Below, in pieces: positions 3,908 to 42,156 of a stretch of DNA of 64,000 bases (its first letter is position 1; every line of letters starts with the position of its first letter). The DNA comes from Candidatus Anderseniibacteriota bacterium (lineage in GTDB: Bacteria; Patescibacteriota; Andersenbacteria; UBA10190). The position numbers and the translations under genes were made by a program. The DNA lies in the NCBI GenBank assembly GCA_040900375.1, contig JBBDZC010000003.1, positions 586-64,585 on the forward strand, written 5' to 3'. Below the pieces are notes generated by a model. It was given only the letters and a program-made list of their open reading frames with translations, did no database searches and was not told where the DNA came from.

Positions 3908-5341
3908 TCAGGGTTGCCGCTCTGGCTGAAGATTGAGGATAATACGTTTTTCAATACGAGGGATGGATTGAACCCAAAAGGGCCATAAGTTCAAATCTAC
4001 CGATCGTACTCCAGGTAGGCCCTGGAGATAAGTAGTTGCCTCTTGGCGTTTACGACCTGCTAATTTTTCTCGAAGAGTTTCCAGTGATAGCTGCGGAATT
4101 GTGGTATGAGTGACTCGGACCAAGACTGTTGCTTCGGCTTGTTCCCAATTAATGTCCTCAACAGTTTTATTATAGGTAATAGGACCAGGAAAAAGCATAT
4201 ATTCTTGATCGAGGCGTTCTGTCAAAGCAATTGTCAGCTTGGCTTCAAGCGCTTGCTGCTCATAACCAATGACGCGAACAATCGAACGCGCCGTGTAGGG
4301 AATAGTTGCTTGTCGGCTATCAAGGGCCGCCTCGCTCGTAAAGGATATGATCTCGTTAGTCCAACTTTCCTCTAAAATAATCCAGTTTTGGGGTAGTTCT
4401 TGGCGAATCTCTTGCTCCACTTTGGCCCTCGCTTTGCTACCCGCATCTTGTCGCGCTGTCTCTAGGTCTTGTTCTTTAATAACCGCTACGTTCTCACCAG
4501 AACCCCCCGTTAAAGCTGTCGTCGCCTCCGCGTAGACCAAGGATTGAGCAGGTGCATCTAGGGCGGCGAAATTAAGACGTTGGGGTTCAATATTACTCTC
4601 GGCCCCCGCCTCGGCCGCTTCTACCTCTACACTGACAGTACCTGCTGGAGGAATTGTGGCGCTTTTTATCATGAAAAACAGCTTGTCATCCTGGGTTACG
4701 AGACGGCTGCGTTCTTTAATTTTTTGTTCATCAACAGTGCGATTAATGAGTTGCACTCTCCCCTGCGTCTTTGTGCCTATTACTTCAGTACTAGTCACGG
4801 TAGCCGAATCGGTGATCTCAACTTCGCGAAAAAAAGCCGAGCCGGGAATATTGCCAGAAGCTTCTGCTCCCTCGGCTTTAATGGTTAAACGTTCATCCAC
4901 CAGCAAGGGAGCCGTGCGCAACACCATTTTAACATTTGCCCGAGGAAGAAAAATAAACCCAGCGAGTAGGCTGGCCAGGATCACTAAACCAAGCAATGCG
5001 AGCACTACTTTGCGCTCACGGTGACCTAAACGGACTGACCGAGCCGGATTCTTGGTCTTAACCGCCGACGAAGGGGCTGAAGCTAGGCGGTTACCGCTCG
5101 CAGTTTTCTGCGGTGCCGCTACCTGAATATTAGTAACCGGTACCTTGGCGCCCGGAGGCAATCGCTTTGACTCCAGGGTTTTTTTATTAAAGTTGCTGGC
5201 CTGATTTTGATAAGTCGAGCGGGCATGCTCCGGAGAGCGCCCCGCCGGCACGGGCAACTTTGGCAAAGAGGAGAGCGGCGGCTTGTGATCACCAGGAAAA
5301 TCACGAGGATGCATATTGGGAGTAGGTCGTATATCACGCAT
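3908..5341 (-). CDS. hypothetical membrane-anchored protein
   Basis: 477 aa with a Pro/Ser-rich basic N-terminal ~120 aa, one TM helix (VVLALLGLVILASLLAGFIFL) and a large extracytoplasmic domain. I do not recognise a family. Confidence 0.5.
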   Translation of the reverse strand: MRDIRPTPNMHPRDFPGDHKPPLSSLPKLPVPAGRSPEHARSTYQNQASNFNKKTLESKRLPPGAKVPVTNIQVAAPQKTASGNRLASAPSSAVKTKNPARSVRLGHRERKVVLALLGLVILASLLAGFIFLPRANVKMVLRTAPLLVDERLTIKAEGAEASGNIPGSAFFREVEITDSATVTSTEVIGTKTQGRVQLINRTVDEQKIKERSRLVTQDDKLFFMIKSATIPPAGTVSVEVEAAEAGAESNIEPQRLNFAALDAPAQSLVYAEATTALTGGSGENVAVIKEQDLETARQDAGSKARAKVEQEIRQELPQNWIILEESWTNEIISFTSEAALDSRQATIPYTARSIVRVIGYEQQALEAKLTIALTERLDQEYMLFPGPITYNKTVEDINWEQAEATVLVRVTHTTIPQLSLETLREKLAGRKRQEATTYLQGLPGVRSVDLNLWPFWVQSIPRIEKRIILNLQPERQP

Positions 5342-7949: not shown

Positions 7950-8195
7950 GAACTACAGTATAGCATGTCTCGTGATAGTTCGTTGCCTTCTATTCTGCAA
8001 ACTAATAAGAATGCAAAAATTAACCCATGAGAGTTTTTATCTGGAGCCCGTAAGCCCGAGGATGAAGGGCTTTGTCACTGTCCCGGCGGGGAGCCGGCAC
8101 GCCACAGACAAAAGTCCCCCGATACCACGGGCATAAGCCCGTAGTGACTTTTATTGCCCTCCGCAAATATCCTGCCGCTCGCCGCGGGGGCGGCT

Positions 8196-9938
8196 TTATG
8201 GCAGGGGTGGTGGCGTGGGTCCCACAAAGGCAGCTGGTTGCGACGGCTTGGGCGAGTGTTTGTGAGAAGGAACGTCTGTTGCTGACGAGGATGCAGCCGC
8301 ACCTACCGTATGCTGCCTTTGTCGTTTTTCTTCCTTAACCTCCGCGAAGCATTCTCGACAATAGACTGCCTTCTCGGGATCAGGCATAAATGGCACTTCC
8401 GCTTGATTGCCACAGCGGTCACACGTAATGGTGTACATTGTTTTTTTCGATTTCCCCGCCTCATGAGACACTGGTTGCTCCGCGGCAGTTAAAACCGCTG
8501 CGAGATCAGTAATCTCACGCTGCTGAGCTTGAACTACCACATCTTGCAGTTCCTTTTCAATAAACTGCTGGGGAGGGCTGGGTGGCCTGGACTGTGTTCG
8601 CGCAGGCCGGGCGGCACTTGGTTGGCCTTCGTCAACAGCCGCCTTGCCCTGTAAAACAACACCGCTCCAGCGCGCGATCTTTTCTTCCACAATTTCTCGC
8701 TGTCGGCCGTAACGCTCCCGCGAAACATTAATCACTGTGTCCTTTTTGCCAAAATCCTCAATCGCGGGCGGGATTGTCTGCATACTGAATGGCTTGCTAG
8801 TTACCCCATGAATCATGAGCTTCACGTAGGCATTATATTTGTTGAGGTTAACCAGGTCAGTCTCTGTAAATGTGGGAAAGAACTCCTTTTCTAAGTACTC
8901 TGCATCAAAAGCACCAACCCGGAAAGAAATTAATGTGCCGACATTGCCAAAGACCGCATCGCGCACAGGTTCTTCCATTTGGGTAATATATTGATGGGCA
9001 ATAGTGAGGTTTAAACGATACTTGCGCGCTTCCGAGAGAATGGTGGCAAAAGATTCAGTTGCAAAATTTTGAAACTCATCAACATAGAGGTAAAAATCAC
9101 GCCGCTCTGCTTCAGGCATACTGGCTCGGTCCATGGCTGCTAACTGAATACGGTTAATTAACATTGCTCCCAACAAAGCAGAATTATCTTCGCCAATTTT
9201 TCCCTTAGAAACATTGATCAGTAAGATTTTGCCGTTATCCATAATATCTTTCATATCAATTGTGCTCTTAGGTTGAGCAACAATATTGCGAATAATGGCC
9301 GAGCTTAGAAATTGCCCTACTTTATTTTGAATAGGCGAAATCGCTTCACTACGAAAACGCTCATTATAGTTAGCAAATTCGTTAGTCCAAAAGGCTTTGA
9401 CCACCGGGTCAGAGATCTTTTCTACTACTTTCTTACGGTACTTTTGGTCAGACAGCATACGTAAAATCCCCAAAATAGTACTCGAGGGGTAATCAAGTAA
9501 TGCTAAAATGGTATTGCGTAAAATATATTCGAGTCGCGGCCCCCAGGAATCGGCCCATATTTTCTTGAGACTAGAAACTAACCCAGAGGCAACGAGGTAT
9601 TTATACGAGGGGTCAACAGCCTCGAGCACATTAAAGGCGATGGGGTAGTTAACGTCTGAAGGATCAAAGTAAATAACGTCGTTAATGCGCTCGGGAGGAA
9701 TAGCATTCAGTAACTTCTCCGCGGTATCACCATGAGGATCGACTAAACAAACCCCTTTATTATTGACAATATCTTGCGCAATCATGTTCTCTAACAGTGT
9801 GGATTTACCTACGCCGGTTTTTCCAATGACATAAATATGCCGCCGGCGATCGTCGGGATAAATACCAAATTTCCGGTGCTGACCGCGAAAATTAGTTTGA
9901 CCCACAATCGTGATATCTGGTATCTCGGTAAGTTTCAT
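8196..9938 (-). CDS. VirD4/TraG/TrwB-like coupling-type P-loop ATPase, soluble, with Pro-rich tail and C-terminal CxxC...CxxC zinc ribbon
   Basis: Walker A is IGKTGVGKST and Walker B is FYLYVDEFQNF. The conserved ARKYRLNLTIAHQ box resembles the T4SS coupling-protein / FtsK-HerA superfamily. The C-terminus carries CDRCGNQAEV...YCRECF. Confidence 0.6.
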   Translation of the reverse strand: MKLTEIPDITIVGQTNFRGQHRKFGIYPDDRRRHIYVIGKTGVGKSTLLENMIAQDIVNNKGVCLVDPHGDTAEKLLNAIPPERINDVIYFDPSDVNYPIAFNVLEAVDPSYKYLVASGLVSSLKKIWADSWGPRLEYILRNTILALLDYPSSTILGILRMLSDQKYRKKVVEKISDPVVKAFWTNEFANYNERFRSEAISPIQNKVGQFLSSAIIRNIVAQPKSTIDMKDIMDNGKILLINVSKGKIGEDNSALLGAMLINRIQLAAMDRASMPEAERRDFYLYVDEFQNFATESFATILSEARKYRLNLTIAHQYITQMEEPVRDAVFGNVGTLISFRVGAFDAEYLEKEFFPTFTETDLVNLNKYNAYVKLMIHGVTSKPFSMQTIPPAIEDFGKKDTVINVSRERYGRQREIVEEKIARWSGVVLQGKAAVDEGQPSAARPARTQSRPPSPPQQFIEKELQDVVVQAQQREITDLAAVLTAAEQPVSHEAGKSKKTMYTITCDRCGNQAEVPFMPDPEKAVYCRECFAEVKEEKRQRQHTVGAAASSSATDVPSHKHSPKPSQPAAFVGPTPPPLP

Positions 9939-9950
9939 AGAATCGGTAAC

Positions 9951-11243
9951 TTAAATATACGGCAGATTTTCCGGAGCGCTACCGAGACCGGAAGTGGCTC
10001 GCTGAATACTAGGAGAACGACCATATTTGCTGGGAAAATGAAAAAGAGTAGCGAGTTCTTCAGCCGTCATCATTGACCCACTCTTATCTCCCCAAAAATC
10101 CCGAAATTGATAATTAAGCAATATTACACGTTTACGATATCGCCGCCGCGTCTGCTTGAGAATATAATTAGGACCATTTGTTTTTGTAGCATCATCAGGC
10201 TTAAGAGAGTTAAGATGAGACGTGTTAAATTGTTTAAACACGCCAATCGCTTTACTGGCGTTGGGTTTATGAAGCTTGCCGACGGGGGCAATGTGAACGA
10301 CTCGCATTTTAGTGCGAAAACCCGAACGGCCAACTTTTTGCAAAATAGCTTTAGTAATGTCTTGTTCGGGTGGGGTCATAAAGAGCCGTTGTGGTTTAAT
10401 ATCATTCTTTGCACTCGCTTCGAGGGGACCCTTAGTCGCTGCTTGGAATAGTTCGCCAGGCAACGCCGTTAAAAACTCAAATAAGCGCGCGGTGACTCCT
10501 GGCGGCTTCTCTTTAACCCGCCCGGCAATCCTATTAATCTCTTCCTGGCCCCGTTCTGACCACGTATTAATGTCGGAGGCACTAACAGGACGGACGAGTA
10601 ACTGAAACCAAAAATGTTCACCCTCTTCAATGGTTGTAAACGCTTCAATCAGTGCTTGCAAGGGGTCAATGTAGCGCTCATCTTCGGCTAAGGCATCTTC
10701 ATAATCATGGTAGGTTCTAATCGGAAAAATATCCTCTCGGACGAGCACCATCTCTGTGCCGTAGAGATCAAAAGTTTTTTCTAGATCTCTATGAGGAAAA
10801 GCTTGGGCATAATCTTCAACCTCGCGGATTTCCGCGGTCGGATATTGACCATAAATTACTCCTTCAAAAAACTTTCTATGCACCGTCGGCACAACCATAA
10901 TAAAGCGGACTCGATTACGCGTGCATTCTAACTCACAAGTGTACCAGGCAAGCATATACCCCTCAAAGTATCGCTCCAGTAAATCAGGATTTTTATGAAT
11001 GCCGCCCCACACTTCAAAAGCTTGCTCCATCGCCTTGGGTGTTTGCGGCGTCTCTTCCGGCACAGTAATTTGGAGGTACGTGAAGTGAATCGCGGAAACA
11101 TAATCAATCTGCTTGAGACGCAGATATACTTCCCAGGCGATCCAGAGGGCAAAAAAGACAATAAATAACCAGCCCCAAGAAAGTAAGACAGTTGCAAATT
11201 CGCTTAAGAGACGAAGAATATTGGAAAAATCCCAGAATGACAC
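9951..11243 (-). CDS. hypothetical membrane protein, partner of the VirD4-like ATPase
   Basis: 430 aa with N-terminal TM helices (LLSWGWLFIVFFALWIAW). It ends 12 nt before the ATPase start. No family recognised. Confidence 0.45.
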   Translation of the reverse strand: MSFWDFSNILRLLSEFATVLLSWGWLFIVFFALWIAWEVYLRLKQIDYVSAIHFTYLQITVPEETPQTPKAMEQAFEVWGGIHKNPDLLERYFEGYMLAWYTCELECTRNRVRFIMVVPTVHRKFFEGVIYGQYPTAEIREVEDYAQAFPHRDLEKTFDLYGTEMVLVREDIFPIRTYHDYEDALAEDERYIDPLQALIEAFTTIEEGEHFWFQLLVRPVSASDINTWSERGQEEINRIAGRVKEKPPGVTARLFEFLTALPGELFQAATKGPLEASAKNDIKPQRLFMTPPEQDITKAILQKVGRSGFRTKMRVVHIAPVGKLHKPNASKAIGVFKQFNTSHLNSLKPDDATKTNGPNYILKQTRRRYRKRVILLNYQFRDFWGDKSGSMMTAEELATLFHFPSKYGRSPSIQRATSGLGSAPENLPYI

Positions 11244-11343
11244 AGAGGCAATAATTTTCCGCTGACAGTTTTAAAATATCAGGGGCGTATGCTTAACCAT
11301 ACCATAAGCCCCGCGGTTGGTGCGACTTAAGTGGGGCGGTTAA

Positions 11344-11525
11344 GAGCTTGGTGAATAATGAATTATTGTACTCGGGTGCCGCCCCCGCCTTCACCAGTAC
11401 CGCTCCGGCGGGTACACCGAGTCAAAGCCGCCTGCCCTACCGAAGCTTGCCGAAGCGAAGGCGGGTCGGACGGGGGTGCAGGTGCAGGCAGGCCCCGCTC
11501 GATACTGAAGTTATTCACCAAGCTC
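11344..11525. repeat. ~182-bp GC-rich element bounded by a perfect 15-bp terminal inverted repeat (GAGCTTGGTGAATAA / TTATTCACCAAGCTC); MITE-like
   Basis: The inverted repeat sits at 11344-11358 and 11511-11525. A homologous element with degenerate ends lies at 23590-23725 (shared AGAGCTTGGTGAAT...TTATT.TACTCGGGTG and CCGCTCGATA.T blocks). Confidence 0.55.
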
Positions 11526-11540
11526 CAGCTAAGGAAAATT

Positions 11541-11649
11541 GACTCTTCGACTCGCGCAAGCTCCACCCTGAAGGGTGGAGATAAGCGCGGCTCAGAGTCA
11601 ACCCTGAGCAAGCCACGGCCTTTAGACCGTGGAGTCGAATGGGTTGACA
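11541..11649 (+). repeat. copy 1 of a ~109-bp multi-hairpin repeat family
   Basis: GACTCTTCGACTCGCGCAAGCTCCACCCTGAAGGGTGGAG...CCACGGCCTTTAGACCGTGGAGTCGAATGGGTTGACA. Near-identical copies occur at 19324-19434 (+), 23749-23857 (-) and 30453-30563 (-). Confidence 0.85.
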
Positions 11650-11661
11650 ATGTCGAGGTCT

Positions 11662-12717
11662 TTACGACCGGAGGGTGTAGCGGTTCTCGGGCGTCTTAAT
11701 AAAACGTTTTTCGTTTTGGAGGCCGAGGAGGATAGTGTTCTTCTTAACCTGACGCTGGGCTAACACTTGCTCAATTAGCTCTTCGCGGGTCAAAGGAGTT
11801 TGGGCGCGCGCGAGTAATGACTCTAAAACATCGGCAACTGTGCCTGGGATATAACCCCACTCTGCCAGCCCGTATAAACCGCGACCGACTAGCACAAATC
11901 GATCATCTTTGATCAGTTCATTATGCACAGTTTGAGCATTGGCTTGCTTATGATCAAAAGCGGCTTCATTGATCAAATTAGTGATTCGCGTAAAGTGCTC
12001 TGGTTTGCCGTGGCGACGTAATACAGCATAGGCCTTATCACCGACTCCGCGCGGATTAGTTTCCGGCCAACCCGCCAGCCCCCATTCAAGAAAAGGAGTC
12101 TGGTTAACGTGTTTGCTTGCCTTGAGGCACGCGTCAATATAGCGAGAGGGTAATGTCTCCAGAGTTTCTTTAAGGCTGTGTAAGATCCCCTCAATCAACT
12201 CTTGCTCGGGCAGGGGATGTTGAGTTTGCTTTAAAATCTGGCGAGCGCTCTCCACCACCACCACAGCCTTATCTGTTACGACTGCCGGATAGCGCCAGTG
12301 CGGAGCAAAATACTGGTCACGAGAAACATACGTGTATGGCGGCAAAATCTCTAAGTAAAAGGTGACGACCGCCGGATGAATGTTATCCTGGCCAAGCACT
12401 TCACGCACTACTGCCACTACATGATTATCCGCCAGGATACCGCCATGATTGACGAAAATCTCTTCAAAAACCTCGGCTACTGGCTGCAAGGGGTCATGCA
12501 AAGCCGCTAAAACCTTTTTAGCTTGTGATTCGATTTGGCGCACTCGCTCGCGGGTAATACCATACTCTTTACCAATACTCTCGAGCGTCTCTACATGACC
12601 ATTGTTTAACCCAAAACGGCGACTGATAATGTCGCGAGAACGATCATCAAGCGCTTCCAAAAGTGTCTGGGTAAGTTGGTTAAGTTTTAATGCTTTAGCA
12701 GGGGCAGTCGCGGACAT
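11662..12717 (-). CDS. sigma-70 region 4-like HTH fused to two HARE-HTH-like domains; putative transcription factor
   Basis: The N-terminus (TLESIGKEYGITRERVRQIESQAKKVL) is a sigma-70 region 4.2 signature. The C-terminus (RFVLVGRGLYGLAEWGY) and an internal segment (PFLEWGLAGW) resemble the HARE-HTH (RNA polymerase delta N-terminal) motif F.RVGRGLYGL.EW. Confidence 0.55.
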   Translation of the reverse strand: MSATAPAKALKLNQLTQTLLEALDDRSRDIISRRFGLNNGHVETLESIGKEYGITRERVRQIESQAKKVLAALHDPLQPVAEVFEEIFVNHGGILADNHVVAVVREVLGQDNIHPAVVTFYLEILPPYTYVSRDQYFAPHWRYPAVVTDKAVVVVESARQILKQTQHPLPEQELIEGILHSLKETLETLPSRYIDACLKASKHVNQTPFLEWGLAGWPETNPRGVGDKAYAVLRRHGKPEHFTRITNLINEAAFDHKQANAQTVHNELIKDDRFVLVGRGLYGLAEWGYIPGTVADVLESLLARAQTPLTREELIEQVLAQRQVKKNTILLGLQNEKRFIKTPENRYTLRS

Positions 12718-16405: not shown

Positions 16406-16574
16406 ACGTTAATCATACGTTTATTTGTGCGGGAAATGAAACGGCCTTCGCATCTTACGGTAGAGTATGCAAAGGATGTAATGAAGCCTCCCCCGCGGCC
16501 AGGCCGCGGGGTATCAGGGCGGCTGCGTTGCCTAAGGAGTCGGCTCCGCCGATTCCTTTCAGAACCCCTTCCAT

Positions 16575-16616
16575 CCCCGCCGCTAGCGGCGGGGTATTCA
16601 CGGGGTGCAATAAACT
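16575..16616. repeat. 42-nt GC-rich palindromic element (CCCCGCCGCTAGCGGCGGGG + TATTCACGGGGTGCAATAAACT) in the murG-ftsW spacer
   Basis: A perfect 9-bp-stem palindrome. The same 42 nt (3 mismatches, reverse orientation) recurs at 30108-30149 inside a GT2 coding sequence. Confidence 0.7.
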
Positions 16617-19221: not shown

Positions 19222-19323
19222 AGAAATTCATCCTTATAAGTCCCTGGTGATAACAAGACCTCCTATGTCTTATACATACCTTACAACAAAGAAGTGCCGG
19301 GACGGAAACTGTTTATCTAGTTT

Positions 19324-19434
19324 GACTCTTCGACTCGCGCAAGCTCCACCCTTCAGGGTGGAGATACGCGCGGCTTTAGAGTCAACCCTTAAGCAAGCCA
19401 CGGCCTTTAGACCGTGGAGTCGAATGGGTTGACA
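19324..19434 (+). repeat. copy 2 of the ~109-bp multi-hairpin repeat, inside the murD-mraY spacer
   Basis: About 93% identical to copy 1. The differences fall at hairpin loops (TGAA to TTCA, CTCAG to CTTTAG, TGAG to TTAAG). Confidence 0.85.
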
Positions 19435-23589: not shown

Positions 23590-23725
23590 TTTAGAGCTTG
23601 GTGAATGAGGAGTTATTATACTCGGGTGACACCGGGGGGAGGACCCGCCCTTAAGCAGCACCAAGCCTTGCGACTGCGGCCGCAGGGGCGGGGCAGCCGC
23701 TCGATATTTATATTCGCCAAAATCT
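23590..23725. repeat. second copy (degenerate ends) of the ~180-bp TIR element seen at 11344-11525
   Basis: Shares AGAGCTTGGTGAAT.A.GA.TTATT.TACTCGGGTG at one end and CCGCTCGATA.T at the other, with a different GC-rich core. Confidence 0.5.
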
Positions 23726-23748
23726 CTAAAGCTAAGACAAGCGCCTAA

Positions 23749-23857
23749 GTCAACCCATTCGACTCCACGGTCTAAAGACCGTGGCTTGTTCAGGGTTGAC
23801 TCTAAAGCCGCGCTTATCTCCACCCTGAAGGGTGGAGCTTGCGCGAGTCGAAGAGTC
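23749..23857 (-). repeat. copy 3 (inverted orientation) of the ~109-bp multi-hairpin repeat
   Basis: The reverse complement matches copies 1 and 2 over the full length. Lies in the divergent GT2 / murF intergenic region. Confidence 0.85.
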
Positions 23858-23921
23858 AATGAAAGCCAGCAATGGCTGCGCGGCGCTTTTCGTGGATAAG
23901 GAAAAGATGTAGCCTTAGAGT

Positions 23922-27912: not shown

Positions 27913-29381
27913 GCAGCCACCTTGTTATTCCCACTAGTAGCTGACACTAATCCGGCCATAATCCAAAAAAGGGCGTTAGTGGGATAAATATCCCACGTAT
28001 CAATAAAAATTGCCTGGAGCATAAAAGAGATTAACCAACCAAGCGCGCTCAAGGCAATAATACGCGGCACGCCCGTCCGCAAAAAGATGGTAGTTACCCC
28101 GGTTCGTAGTAGCCGCCAATAAATCCAGGCGTACAACAAGAGGCCGATGAGTCCCAATTCAATGAGTGTTTTAAGATACTGATTATCGACGAGGGTAGTA
28201 TTTTTCGCTAGCTGCACGTTGCGCGCTGCACCCGTAGCAATATCATATGAGGTTAGGGTTACTTCGCGGAAGTTCTGCGCGAGCACATCACCTAGACCTC
28301 GGCCAATAATTGCTTCGTGATTAGACAGCGGTGCCAACAGTCGGGCGAGGAATTCCAACCGTTCCTGATTACTACGATACCCTGAATCAAAACTCGAGGA
28401 AATAAAAACTCCCACGCGGGTAAATTGAGCCACAGCCACCGTTACCATCACCAATAGTAAGCAGCAAATTGCCAGCTTTCGCCAAGGAAAAGCCGCCACA
28501 GAATACTTCTTAAAAGACGCTGTCGCCACCAGCCCAATAATAGTGATAAGCAAGCTAGCAAATCCCAGCCACACGGCCCGAGAATACGTCAGATAAATTA
28601 AGAGTGTAGCCGCTAGTAACAAAAAACCTGCACCAGCCCGCACTCTACGCGAAGTTTTTACCAGAACAGCCGCCAGACAAATACCGGCAATAAGAATAAG
28701 ATAGTGGCCGAAAACACTAGGATGACCAAAAGTGCTCGACACCCGAGGAATCCATAATTTAACAGCTGGTTCAAAGCGCAACACCGCACTATCAATCGCG
28801 AACCACCATTGATAAGCACTAGCTACGACAGTGATCGCAAAGGAAAAAAATAACCACATGAGCAGTTCGTAGTAAAATTTCTTTGTCCGCGGCAAATAGA
28901 GAACAATAAAATAGAGCAAGATATATAGTAATATTTCTCTGGTTCGCAGGATACCTAGCAGGCGAGAATCAGCGCGCAGGAGAGCGACGCTTACCCATAG
29001 ACTAAGTCCGATGACTGGTCCGATTAATACCATGCGGCGGTAGGTCAGCTTTTTTTGAAGCAGAGGCCATAAGAACAGATGAACAAAAAGCGTGACAATA
29101 ATAACATCCTTGATCAGGGTGGCAATACTAATGGTCTGCGTCACCTTAAGGAGTGGCAGCAGTGGGCTGATAATCACGAGCATAAAGAAACCAAGCACAG
29201 GCTGTTGCCACACCCACCAGGCGACAATTACAAAGAGGAGGCTTAAAACTCCCGCTTGAAAGCTAACAGTCAGGCTAATGACCGCAACACTCATTGCGGC
29301 AATCAGCGCCCAGGCGTAGCCGGGAGGAAAACTCACAGAAGAGAGTCGCTCAAGATTATACATGGGACTTAATTTTCTCAT
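27909..29381 (-). CDS. O-antigen ligase/polymerase (Wzy/WaaL-like) family membrane protein
   Basis: 490 aa with about 12 TM helices and a large periplasmic loop, sitting between GT genes. Confidence 0.55.
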   Translation of the reverse strand: MRKLSPMYNLERLSSVSFPPGYAWALIAAMSVAVISLTVSFQAGVLSLLFVIVAWWVWQQPVLGFFMLVIISPLLPLLKVTQTISIATLIKDVIIVTLFVHLFLWPLLQKKLTYRRMVLIGPVIGLSLWVSVALLRADSRLLGILRTREILLYILLYFIVLYLPRTKKFYYELLMWLFFSFAITVVASAYQWWFAIDSAVLRFEPAVKLWIPRVSSTFGHPSVFGHYLILIAGICLAAVLVKTSRRVRAGAGFLLLAATLLIYLTYSRAVWLGFASLLITIIGLVATASFKKYSVAAFPWRKLAICCLLLVMVTVAVAQFTRVGVFISSSFDSGYRSNQERLEFLARLLAPLSNHEAIIGRGLGDVLAQNFREVTLTSYDIATGAARNVQLAKNTTLVDNQYLKTLIELGLIGLLLYAWIYWRLLRTGVTTIFLRTGVPRIIALSALGWLISFMLQAIFIDTWDIYPTNALFWIMAGLVSATSGNNKVAA

Positions 29382-30342
29382 TATTATTTCTCCACCCCAA
29401 ATGAAAAAGTATTGCCGGAATTGTAAGGACTAGGGCCAGAGGCAGCAAGAGGATAAGCAGAACGTATGCCCCCGTCCCCAAATGTTTTCGGGTGTAATGA
29501 AGACAACTCTTAAAGAAGGGCCATGAACGTTGCCAGCCAATAAGTTGATTAAAACTGATTCCTCCATAGTGCAATACGACTGCCGCTGGCACATAGAGAA
29601 TTTTCCAACCAGCCGCGCTCGCCCGCCGACAATAATCAACCTCTTCTAACCACACCCAAAAACGCTCATCAAGATACCCAATAGTAGTAAGCAACTCTTG
29701 GTGAATTAAGAAAGCCGCACCCATCACCTGTTCCACTATCTGTTCTTGCTCGTAATTAAAATCAGTCCAGAGGTATTCCCGCCAGCGGCGGGTGCGGCCC
29801 GCTACTCGACTTAATTTAAGAAACCACCCTATAAAGATAGGCAGAGTGGGTAATCGTCGAACTGATAATTGTTGTGTCCGATCAGCGTTGAGTAATTTAG
29901 GCCCCACAATGCCAACGCCGGGATGATGATCAAGTGCCATCACCATCTGCTCTAACGCCCCCGACTGCACCTTGGTGTCCGGATTAAGCAAGAGAATATG
30001 AGTCCGGCTCGCTCGCGTTCGGTGTATATAATGAATGCCCAAGTTATTAGCACGTGCAAAGCCTACGTTCTGCGCTTGCTTAAGTAAGTGGACGGGTAGT
30101 TTATTGCCCCCCGTAAATGCCCCGCCGCTAGCGGCGGGGACGGCTTCATCATTCGCTAGTACGACCGATTCGAGTCGAATTATCGAGTCATCCGTCGAAG
30201 CATTATCAATAACGACAATCGCTTCGATAAGGTTTTTTTCTGGCAATCGCAGCAGCGACTGCACACATTGGACTAGCAACTCTCCAGTATTCCAATTAAC
30301 AATTATGACGCTTACTTTTGTCATTAGTATTAAAATAGTCAA
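29356..30342 (-). CDS. glycosyltransferase family 2 carrying an in-frame 14-aa insertion encoded by the 42-nt palindromic element
   Basis: VSVIIVNWNTGELLVQCVQSLL...VIDNASTDDS...NVGFARANNLG...LNPD are GT2 motifs. The DxS-to-NxGFA spacing is 42 aa here against 22 aa in the two sibling GT2s. The extra segment PAASGGAFTGGNKL is encoded by 30108-30149. Confidence 0.8.
   Translation of the reverse strand: MTILILMTKVSVIIVNWNTGELLVQCVQSLLRLPEKNLIEAIVVIDNASTDDSIIRLESVVLANDEAVPAASGGAFTGGNKLPVHLLKQAQNVGFARANNLGIHYIHRTRASRTHILLLNPDTKVQSGALEQMVMALDHHPGVGIVGPKLLNADRTQQLSVRRLPTLPIFIGWFLKLSRVAGRTRRWREYLWTDFNYEQEQIVEQVMGAAFLIHQELLTTIGYLDERFWVWLEEVDYCRRASAAGWKILYVPAAVVLHYGGISFNQLIGWQRSWPFFKSCLHYTRKHLGTGAYVLLILLLPLALVLTIPAILFHLGWRNNNEKIKSHV
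30108..30149. repeat. second copy of the 42-nt GC palindromic element, inside the GT2 CDS
   Basis: The reverse complement differs from 16575-16616 at only 3 positions. Includes the perfect 20-nt palindrome CCCCGCCGCTAGCGGCGGGG. Confidence 0.7.
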
Positions 30343-30452: not shown

Positions 30453-30563
30453 TGTCAACCCATTCGACTCCACGGTCTAAAGGCCGTGGCTTGCTTAAGG
30501 GTTGACTCTAAAGCCGCGCGTATCTCCACCCTGAAGGGTGGAACTTGCGCGAGTCGAAGAGTC
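30453..30563 (-). repeat. copy 4 (inverted orientation) of the ~109-bp multi-hairpin repeat
   Basis: The reverse complement is about 97% identical to copy 2. Lies between a GT2 start and a truncated NIF3 fragment. Confidence 0.85.
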
Positions 30564-30601
30564 AAGTGCATTACTATACGAACATGCTACCACTGACCTA
30601 A

Positions 30602-30844
30602 GTCTCGAATTATCTAGATCAATATCTGGCAATTACCGACATTGAAGACGATTGTTGGAATGGACTACAATTTGCCGGTAAGTCAGAAGTTGGTAAAATT
30701 GCTTTCGCCGTTGATGCGGGTCTCAACGTCATCTTTGCTGGCCACTATGCCACTGAAACTCTCGGCCTGCGCGCTTTAGCAGATCATATGCACCAGAAGT
30801 TTTCTCTGCCAGTGGAGTTTCTCGATCTGCCAACGGGGCTTTAG
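30602..30844 (+). pseudogene. 3' remnant (80 codons) of a NIF3/YbgI-family (dinuclear metal centre) gene, no start codon
   Basis: Frame translation gives ...CWNGLQFAGKSEVGKIAFAVDAGLNVIFAGHYATETLGLRALADHMHQKFSLPVEFLDLPTGL*, which matches the NIF3 C-terminus (AGHHATE...FIDIPNP). An in-frame stop lies immediately upstream at 30599-30601, right after repeat copy 4. The N-terminal ~180 aa are absent. Confidence 0.65.
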
Positions 30845-30856
30845 ACCCTCTATTTT

Positions 30857-40415: not shown

Positions 40416-41499
40416 GGATGTTGTCTCTCGTGTTTTATTTGTCACCCGGGCAAAAAACAACCAGGCGGGCGGGATGGAACGGCTAAGCCATGAGTTAATT
40501 AAGGCTATAACGCATACTAATTTAGCTGTTGACGTAATCGCTCACTACGGCCGCCGTTACACTGCTCCCCTCTTCGTTATCACCTGCCTGCCCCGGGTTT
40601 GGCGCCAGGCAAAAAAAGCCGACGTGGTGCATATCGGCGATCCCTTGTTAGCACTTGTTGGTTGGGTCGTAAAGAAATTTCTCCACAAGCCGGTCGTTAT
40701 GACTGTGCACGGCCTCGATGTTACCTATCCTCATCCTCTCTATCAATTATATTTACAAATCTTTCTGCCATCAGCCGATCAGTATATTGCCATCAGCCGT
40801 CATGTGAAAAGTCTGCTGCGCCGCCGCGGTTTAGGTCAGCGTGTCACCGTGATACCACCCGGCATAACTGACAAGCTTTATAACCCTCACTATACTCGCC
40901 AAGATTTAAGTCATGTACTCGGCAGTAACCTCGCCAACAAAGTAGTGCTGCTCACTACCGGTCGCTTGGTACCGCGCAAGGGACACGCGTGGTTTATTAC
41001 CCACGTTCTCCCCACTCTTCCCTCTCATGTAGTCTATGTGATTGCAGGTGAAGGACAAGAGAAAGATCATATTATCAGGGTCAGTAAGCGCGCCGGCCTC
41101 CACGAACGCGTGCATGTCCTCGGCCGAGTAACCGATGAAGCCCTGGCGATCCTGACTAATACTAGTGATGCTTTTGTTCAACCTAATATTGCTATCGAGG
41201 GTGATACGGAAGGCTTTGGCCTCGTTTTACTTGAGGCGGCCATCTGCGCCCGGCCTGTCTTTGCCGCTAATCTTGAAGGCATTCCCGATGCAATTACCCC
41301 CGGTAAAAACGGCGTCCTCCTGCCAAGTGGTAACAAGCAGGCCTGGATAGTCGCCTTGGAAAAGTTTATTGCTACGCCTCACCAACATGTGCCCACCGGC
41401 ATGGAGGCACGGCAATACACCTATAACTATTTTGCCTGGCAAAAAATAGTCGAGCAATATCGTACGGTCTTTAGTACCGTCACGATGCCCGTCTCATAA
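40408..41499 (+). CDS. glycosyltransferase family 4
   Basis: EGFGLVLLEAAICARPVFAANLEGIPDAI. The ORF track starts at 40366; MSKDVVSRVLFV at about 40408 avoids the overlap. Confidence 0.75.
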   Translation: MSKDVVSRVLFVTRAKNNQAGGMERLSHELIKAITHTNLAVDVIAHYGRRYTAPLFVITCLPRVWRQAKKADVVHIGDPLLALVGWVVKKFLHKPVVMTVHGLDVTYPHPLYQLYLQIFLPSADQYIAISRHVKSLLRRRGLGQRVTVIPPGITDKLYNPHYTRQDLSHVLGSNLANKVVLLTTGRLVPRKGHAWFITHVLPTLPSHVVYVIAGEGQEKDHIIRVSKRAGLHERVHVLGRVTDEALAILTNTSDAFVQPNIAIEGDTEGFGLVLLEAAICARPVFAANLEGIPDAITPGKNGVLLPSGNKQAWIVALEKFIATPHQHVPTGMEARQYTYNYFAWQKIVEQYRTVFSTVTMPVS

Positions 41500-41541: not shown

Positions 41542-42156
41542 CTACCGCCGCTGGGCACATGTAATGTTATATGACAATGGCATAGTAGTATTTTTTTCTC
41601 GCCACCGGCGATAAGAATATAGGCTAACATTTTCGTAAGTACACCGCGGATCGGAAAAAATTATTTTTGGCGCTACCTGCCATTGCTTTAGATAGTGCAT
41701 TACTACTTTCTGGAGGGAAATACGAACACAGTCAGTCTGTTCCCATGCATAGGGAAAAAGCTGGTGAAATTTTTCTATCTCCTCTCCTAGGTTCTGAAAA
41801 GTAAAATGCTGCGCACATATATGAGGACCAATAAACACTCCGGTAATAGTGGTCGGTGGAAGAAATTGCACTACTCTTTCCAGCTGTTCTACTATCAGCG
41901 ACTTGCGACTAACGTGCAGGGCTAAGACACCCATCGGCGACGCCAGTATTAAGGGCAAACAATCAGCCGATAGAATACCAACTACAACATTGGTTGTTGG
42001 AATCCACGCTCCATCTGCAACCGGTCGCATTACCGAGTAACTTTTAATGGTAGCAATTTTTGCGCCGTGAACCTGTCGTAAGAAAACCGTGTTCACTGGC
42101 AGTCCTTCCAAAGTCCCGATGTTCACGCGCACATCACTGAGTTCAACTGACGTCAT
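41542..42156 (-). CDS. YfiH/PgeF (DUF152, laccase-domain, peptidoglycan editing factor) family protein
   Basis: LSADCLPLILASPMGVLALHVSRKSL and GPHICAQHFTF resemble the ADC.P... / GP.I.. motifs of the family. Confidence 0.5.
   Translation of the reverse strand: MTSVELSDVRVNIGTLEGLPVNTVFLRQVHGAKIATIKSYSVMRPVADGAWIPTTNVVVGILSADCLPLILASPMGVLALHVSRKSLIVEQLERVVQFLPPTTITGVFIGPHICAQHFTFQNLGEEIEKFHQLFPYAWEQTDCVRISLQKVVMHYLKQWQVAPKIIFSDPRCTYENVSLYSYRRWREKNTTMPLSYNITCAQRR

Follow-up and report, generated by a model that had tools for sequence, protein, structure and literature searches.

The locus considered here raises two connected questions, namely what kind of element the palindromic repeat of ~180 bp in a bacterial intergenic spacer is, and how it is related to the repeat of 109 bp that lies beside it. 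The host belongs to Candidatus Andersenbacteria (CPR/Patescibacteria), and its genome was assembled from a metagenome. The stretch of DNA that was analysed, 64,000 nucleotides (nt) in length and called the window below, carries a cell-division and cell-wall cluster (murB, murC, murG, ftsW, murD and mraY) together with many glycosyltransferase genes, and its intergenic spacers have a median length of 35 nt (n=46, between open reading frames of at least 150 aa). One copy of the repeat, copy A, lies in a spacer of 418 nt between the gene of a sigma-like protein (11662-12717) and a DUF8128 gene, both on the minus strand, and a second, copy B, is located between the divergent genes of a glycosyltransferase and a Mur-ligase-like protein. 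With a probability of roughly 0.6, the element is an old, decaying, lineage-specific, non-coding and non-autonomous palindromic repeat of the MITE/REPIN kind, and a younger repeat was subsequently added next to it. The copies and their parts are as follows.

11340..11534, plus strand: copy A of the ~180-bp palindromic repeat, the whole stretch homologous to copy B (alignment, profile search)
11344..11358, plus strand: left arm of the inverted repeat of copy A, GAGCTTGGTGAATAA, 0 mismatches
11511..11525, minus strand: right arm of the inverted repeat of copy A, perfect complement of the left arm, 0 mismatches
11379..11494, no strand assigned: core of copy A, nested GC hairpins, 71.6% G+C, unique in the window (folding, composition)
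11244..11339, no strand assigned: 96 additional nt on the left side of copy A, with the GC hairpin GGGGCTTATG...CATACGCCCC, missing from relatives too
23590..23736, plus strand: copy B, in the orientation of copy A, with the left block kept, a shorter and different core and a degenerate right arm

Copy A had been singled out in a preliminary description of the window for a perfect 15/15 inverted repeat around a very GC-rich core, and on both counts the description is exact: GAGCTTGGTGAATAA at 11344-11358 (+) is repeated at 11511-11525 (-), and the G+C content of the core, 71.6%, compares with 48.7% for the window. The 15/15 pair is the longest perfect local inverted repeat of the 64-kb window, and by our own arithmetic chance alone would produce ~0.02 such 15-nt pairs (64,000 positions x ~300 spacings / 4^15). 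The homolog that had been placed at 23590-23725 is likewise real, with conserved sub-terminal blocks and a different core, and only its extent had to be refined, to 23590-23736. Positions 11340-11383 and 23590-23633 are 84% identical over 44 nt (TTWAGAGCTTGGTGAAT...TTATTRTACTCGGGTG), and a looser right block (~65%), also common to both copies, consists of CCGCTCGATAYT, then ATTCRCCAA and then AGCTAAG. Aligned locally, A and B reach a score of 81, whereas none of 1000 dinucleotide shuffles exceeds 48; in the same orientation the two score 94, and against the reverse complement 45. The left arm of copy B is identical to that of A, and its right arm has decayed to ATTCGCCAAAATCTC (23712-23726). 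The cores cannot be aligned with each other, A having ~85 nt more, and neither resembles anything else in the window; the core of B has 73.5% G+C.

Homology between A and B extends 4 nt to the left (TTWA) and ~9-11 nt to the right (AGCTAAG) of the inverted repeat, and the units therefore run from ~11340 to 11534 and from 23590 to 23736. Thus the inverted repeats that had been called terminal are perfect at 15/15 in copy A and are not strictly terminal, as the arms sit 4-11 nt inside the homologous unit. Outside the element the flanks of A and B have nothing in common, and profile searches of the window found no copies other than these two. Copy B recurs at 151/151 identity in unitig L049 of an independent short-read assembly (Logan, run SRR27977660), which indicates that this copy at least is not an assembly artefact. 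Since the unitig runs unbroken through B, the sample is without a second copy that shares an exact 31-mer with it.

On the minus strand, the extra 96 nt at 11244-11339 read as a GC-rich stem of 10 bp with a T-rich run after it, and they look like a terminator. Their reverse complement agrees with the core of B at 20 of 23 positions and carries GATATTT at the same 58-nt spacing, a similarity to the family with p ~0.01 before correction for multiple tests, and the 96 nt may derive from a further member of the family, as a fragment in inverted orientation.

With units of 147-195 nt and open reading frames (ORFs) that are not conserved, the element is small and non-coding in the manner of a MITE. 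The ORFs that cross A and B have no protein homologs, a search with the concatenated six-frame translations of both loci had no match up to an E value of 1, and the full HMMER scan of a 113-aa ORF returned a single match, to a spurious NHL-repeat protein. A coding left block (SLVN[N/E]ELLYSG) was tried as an explanation and rejected, because the share of differences at third codon positions (3/5) is not significant and the ORF lengths are unrelated. On either strand copy A folds into a single long hairpin (-90.0 kcal/mol and z -4.8 on the plus strand, -89.3 kcal/mol and z -3.8 on the minus strand) that is stable with DNA folding parameters as well (z -4.0), and copy B reaches -57.9 and -57.7 kcal/mol on its two strands. 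A fold that favours neither strand speaks for a palindrome at the level of DNA more than for an RNA made from one strand.

It is nevertheless conceivable that the repeat functions as a structured RNA, be it the product of a small RNA gene or a leader that regulates in cis, with the 44-nt left block as the promoter and the core as the transcript. The left block is the best conserved part (84%) and fits a weak sigma-70-like pattern, TTWAGA, 18 nt, TATTRT, of which copy B matches 9 of 12 positions; the folds of A and B are more stable than those of shuffled sequence, with z from -2.5 to -4.8; both copies lie in the same orientation upstream of minus-strand genes; and copy B has core sequence in common with a probable third copy, C, described below, despite C's lost arm. 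Yet neither strand has the better fold, no alignment is possible between the cores of A and B, whose lengths are ~85 nt apart, and C is oriented oppositely relative to its upstream gene. Furthermore, the element is missing from the orthologous spacers of three relatives, its conserved block has chance matches only in 185,579 species genomes, and no Rfam family emerges even at E up to 10, where the A and B loci gave sub-threshold chance matches only. At the Rfam 15 gathering score the whole window has no match, and ARAGORN found no tRNA or tmRNA in it. Scans for promoters and terminators were negative at locus A, and at locus B they gave a single weak site of each type, one promoter-like and the other terminator-like; the 3 "compensatory" pairs reported by RNAalifold are without weight since they come from two sequences only. 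An RNA function is accordingly judged improbable, and a non-coding DNA palindrome is the reading followed here.

The history of the locus becomes visible in the comparison with relatives. The closest ones available have 66-70% identity in the sigma-like protein and a conserved gene order, and no protein-database relative of this protein exceeds 70%. Where the window has 418 nt between the sigma-like and DUF8128 genes, L051 and L053 have 12 nt each and L050 has 75 nt. In the window the sigma-like protein keeps an intact C-terminus and the DUF8128 protein an intact N-terminus, and the ~400 nt gained between the formerly abutting genes are made up of a 109-bp repeat, copy A and the 96 nt with the GC hairpin. 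The corresponding loci of L050, L051 and L053 contain no homolog of A or B. With spacers of 12-75 nt in the relatives, the repeats are extra, lineage-specific DNA, and an orthologous site thus differs in their presence. At 66-70% amino acid identity such an absence shows, on sequence comparison, a gain in this lineage and not recent mobility. The sigma-like gene is itself part of a trio at 8196-12717 (minus strand), which encodes a protein with sigma-70 region 4 and HARE-HTH domains, the membrane protein DUF8128, and an ATPase of the HerA/TraG kind that carries a treble-clef zinc finger. The trio follows directly after murB, and its genes are also adjacent in L050 and L051, the two relatives with contigs long enough to show it.

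The 109-bp repeat was found in five copies, four in the window and one just before it.

11539..11649, plus strand: copy 1, 13 nt to the right of copy A
19322..19434, plus strand: copy 2, solitary, in the mraY/murD spacer
23749..23859, minus strand: copy 3, 22 nt to the right of copy B, inverted relative to copy 1
30453..30565, minus strand: copy 4, solitary
L055 8338-8514 (~270-453 nt before window position 1): copy 5, together with a 149-nt G+C-rich stretch after rpsI

These copies are 92-98% identical to each other, and all of them have the same pentamer at both ends (TTGAC...GTTGAC), which resembles the conserved cleavage/target sites of IS200/IS605 elements. The mraY/murD spacer that holds copy 2 is 279 nt long here and 61 nt long in L050. 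The fifth copy comes from L055, a Logan unitig of the same organism that extends 453 nt before the start of the window and ends inside the repeat. Between rpsI and this copy lies candidate C (L055 8338-8486, 149 nt), whose reverse complement aligns to the core and right arm of B (...GGGGAGACCCGCCCTT..CCAAGC..GGCCGC..GGGGCGG ... ACACCAAGTCCTC). The alignment with B has a score of 49, where dinucleotide shuffles give 25.4 +/- 4.5 (p ~0.001), the alignment of A with C is not significant, and C is without the left arm. C is therefore described as a probable, degenerate third member of the ~180-bp family.

The preliminary description had put both copies of the ~180-bp repeat within about 25 bp of 109-bp copies 1 and 3, in opposite relative orientations, and this is borne out by distances of 13 nt (A) and 22 nt (B) and by copy 1 (+) beside A (+) and copy 3 (-) beside B (+). 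With C added there are three junction geometries: A(+), 13 nt, 109-bp(+); B(+), 22 nt, 109-bp(-); and 109-bp(-), 0-10 nt, C(+). All three members (A, B and the probable C) thus have a 109-bp copy within 25 nt, and two of the 109-bp copies are solitary. Were placement among the 46 spacers random, A and B would each land in a spacer that holds one of the four 109-bp copies in ~(4/46)^2 = 0.008 of cases by our own arithmetic, and the association is therefore not one of chance. Remnants of the ~180-bp family were also sought next to the two solitary 109-bp copies and in further long spacers, with borderline matches only (p ~0.01 across 66 tests).

Since orientation and end differ in all three junctions, the two families are not one composite unit. 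Such a unit was rejected on the three geometries, on their spacings of 13, 22 and ~0-10 nt, on identities of 92-98% in the one family against 65-84% in the other and on the two solitary 109-bp copies. The higher identity within the 109-bp family also makes it the younger of the two, as the ~180-bp family is left with blocks of 84% and 65% and with cores that cannot be aligned. An inversion between 109-bp copies, by which A and B would once have flanked a single copy, was likewise discarded, for gene order and orientation match those of L050. Of the earlier proposal, independent insertion into shared hotspots or nested MITEs and not a composite, the rejection of the composite stands, and independent insertion into shared sites fits the differing geometries and ages and the DNA inserted relative to the relatives; in the strict sense the element is a possible MITE at most.

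The same data bear on whether anything moved at all. One-off local segmental duplications, or the growth in situ of GC-hairpin terminators, each followed by divergence, would agree with the confinement of all copies of three repeat families (the third is described below) to ~31 kb, and hairpins of the CCCCGCC...GGCGGGG type are common as terminator-like features, one of them being present in the orthologous spacer of L050. A larger duplicated segment is contradicted by the unrelated flanks of A and B, however, and a terminator has no need of a perfect 15-bp inverted repeat with AT-rich arms, nor is one expected at copy B, between divergent gene starts. In addition, the 109-bp repeat adjoins the family in three different geometries, which cannot come from a single event. 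An origin without mobility is for these reasons given a very low standing, and a mobile palindromic repeat is preferred.

The repeats also leave a mark on short-read assemblies. Unitigs L001, L047, L049 and L055 (SRR27977660) end 28-31 nt inside 109-bp copies, from which it follows that the 109-bp repeat fragments the assembly; other unitig ends, at ~10789, 8125 and 8060, coincide with no visible repeat. Known copies of all three families fall within ~31 kb (window about -450 to 30565), and unitig L054, which starts in 109-bp copy 4, is unbroken for 69.9 kb and reaches ~36 kb past the end of the window, has no repeats in the 21 kb of it that were examined. Beside copy 4 a short frame is located at 30590-30845 (+), LDQYLAITD...NGLQFAGK...FAGHYATETLG...FLDLPTGL, which we take to resemble the N- and C-terminal parts of the NIF3 family with the middle missing, and which looks like the remnant of an internally deleted gene.

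No transposase had been noted in the window earlier, and Pfam agrees for every ORF of 150 aa or more, among which there is also no Y1/HUH transposase and no RAYT. Flanking target-site duplications, which it had been suggested to look for, are not found: copy A is flanked by GGTTAA| ... |CAGCTAAGG and copy B by TCTTTA| ... |TAAAGCTAAG, and at copy B only TA occurs on both sides, as part of an extended palindrome. A duplication could have been erased by decay. Taken together, the lack of a target-site duplication and the non-terminal inverted repeat argue against a classical DDE-type MITE.

Both of these features would be explained by the main rival reading, the mobilisation of single-stranded DNA by a Y1/HUH transposase, with the repeat as a palindromic element of the REPIN/RAYT type or one derived from IS200/IS605 (PATE). 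In this case it would also be natural that the whole unit is one long hairpin, stable as DNA, and that the neighbouring 109-bp repeat begins and ends with the same pentamer, which recalls IS200/IS605 sites; moreover, REP-BIME mosaics tied to Y1 transposases are known (PMC3333891). The element has no GTAG-type REP head, however, no Y1 transposase or RAYT gene is encoded in the window, the 2-3 copies seen compare with tens to hundreds in known REP families, and the boundaries of A and B have no tetra- or pentanucleotide in common except TTWA. A Y1/HUH origin is therefore considered unlikely, and the broader assignment to non-autonomous palindromic repeats of the MITE/REPIN kind is retained.

This assignment draws on the known biology of MITEs and REP sequences (reviewed in PMC3184786). 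Like the bacterial MITEs Correia of Neisseria, ERIC/IRU of enterobacteria, RUP of Streptococcus and Nezha of cyanobacteria (PMC3184786), which are non-coding, intergenic and 100-250 bp in length, the element has near-terminal inverted repeats, a long hairpin, ends that are more alike than the interiors and a presence that differs between lineages. Unlike them it shows no visible target-site duplication, is present in 2-3 copies, has arms that lie 4-11 nt inside the unit, goes with no parent insertion sequence known here and has a core of 72% G+C against 49%. With REP/BIME mosaics and with REPINs and their RAYT (PMC3333891, PMC2817692) it shares the juxtaposition of different palindromes in intergenic DNA in variable orientation, and the G+C-rich stem-loops without target-site duplication. 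REP units, however, measure 20-40 nt, have a GTAG head and number more than 100 copies, whereas the units here are of 147-195 nt, without such a head and in 2-3 copies, and the families that are paired are unrelated and differ in age, with no RAYT gene in sight.

The pairing of the two families finds its closest counterpart in insertion sequences for which REP sequences are documented targets (PMC1525189). IS1397, ISKpn1 and members of the IS110 family insert beside or into palindromic repeats (PMC1525189, PMC12288879), as the 109-bp repeat seems to have done. These are full elements with a transposase and a precise insertion point, whereas here the incomer is a non-coding repeat of 109-111 bp for which distance (0-22 nt), end and orientation vary.

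Beyond the window the family was not encountered. Approximately 75 kb of the host genome were searched, with a yield of two copies and one probable one. The pattern GAGCTTGGTGAATN6TTATT gave 42 matches in 185,579 species genomes (GTDB, one each), a set from which the host genome is evidently absent, and all of the matches are attributed to chance because none continues with TACTCGGGTG. In JGI metagenomes, TTGGTGAATN6TTATTNTACTCGG had 0 matches and a 20-mer of the 109-bp repeat had 2, both by chance; in IMG/VR viral contigs the pattern of the ~180-bp repeat had 1 match, presumed to be chance, and that of the 109-bp repeat 0; and blastn with the ~180-bp element found nothing in PLSDB plasmids and phages. 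The genome, metagenome, viral, plasmid and phage collections thus provide no evidence of spread beyond this lineage.

It is proposed that in the ancestral unit a hairpin core rich in G+C was enclosed by two AT-richer arms (GAGCTTGGTGAAT... / ...ATTCACCAAGCTC), and that a transposase acting in trans moved this unit into spacers that were originally ~12 nt long. The copies would since have aged and decayed, A keeping perfect arms, B losing the complementarity of one arm together with part of the core, and the probable C retaining only a B-like core and the right arm. The younger 109-bp repeat would then have inserted as the second arrival, no more than 25 nt from one end of each copy, at either end and in either orientation. 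Two accounts of this co-location may be offered. In the first, the old elements would have been almost the only dispensable DNA in a genome region where the median spacer is 35 nt. In the second, the insertion machinery of the 109-bp repeat would recognise hairpin ends, as some insertion sequences recognise REP (PMC1525189). A targeting of the hairpin ends of the ~180-bp repeat by the 109-bp repeat or its enzyme is rather doubtful, and the same low probability covers the alternative that the core common to B and C is a new structured RNA carried by the arms. If targeting did occur, a CPR genome would harbour a miniature mobile element that is "repeat-hunting", the 109-bp repeat, and its short hops would stay within a cell-envelope region of ~31 kb.

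A third palindromic family, rep3, is found in the same region.

30098-30143: rep3, GC hairpin CCCCGCCGCTAGCGGCGGGG and its flank, inside a glycosyltransferase gene (29356-30324, minus strand)
16571-16616 and 8150-8196: further copies of rep3

One of these copies is intergenic, between murG and ftsW, and the ATPase gene carries a weaker one (83%) at its 3' end. The copy in the glycosyltransferase gene, which is of family 2, leaves the reading frame intact (...EAVPAASGGAFTGGNKLP...). Rickettsia palindromic elements (RPEs) are small palindromic repeats of a reduced genome that lie inside genes with the frame kept. In the glycosyltransferase gene rep3 is like an RPE in that the frame is unbroken, a likeness that belongs to rep3 and not to the intergenic ~180-bp element, and sequence similarity to RPEs is lacking. 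In the Pfam alignment 140 residues of the rep3-bearing glycosyltransferase cover 116 positions of the profile, in agreement with an in-frame insertion of the RPE kind.

CPR/Patescibacteria genomes are small and densely coding, and no description of MITE-like repeats in them was found in the literature searched, nor any relevant paper on run SRR27977660. Here three palindromic families occur within ~31 kb of cell-wall and glycosylation genes, where formerly abutting genes have been split and short-read assemblies are broken. If the repeats are mobile, reduced genomes would host active miniature elements, which could serve as markers for strain typing and help to explain why metagenome-assembled genomes are fragmented. 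By its look the ~180-bp element is an ordinary relic of a miniature mobile element and adds no new principle.

Two further features of the window are recorded. Two convergent genes have a 16-nt inverted repeat with 94% complementarity across their ends (41385-41400 / 41547-41562). At 3908-5341 (minus strand), between the alanyl-tRNA synthetase gene and infA, a protein of 477 aa is encoded that has only a weak match to Baseplate_J (E 7e-5).
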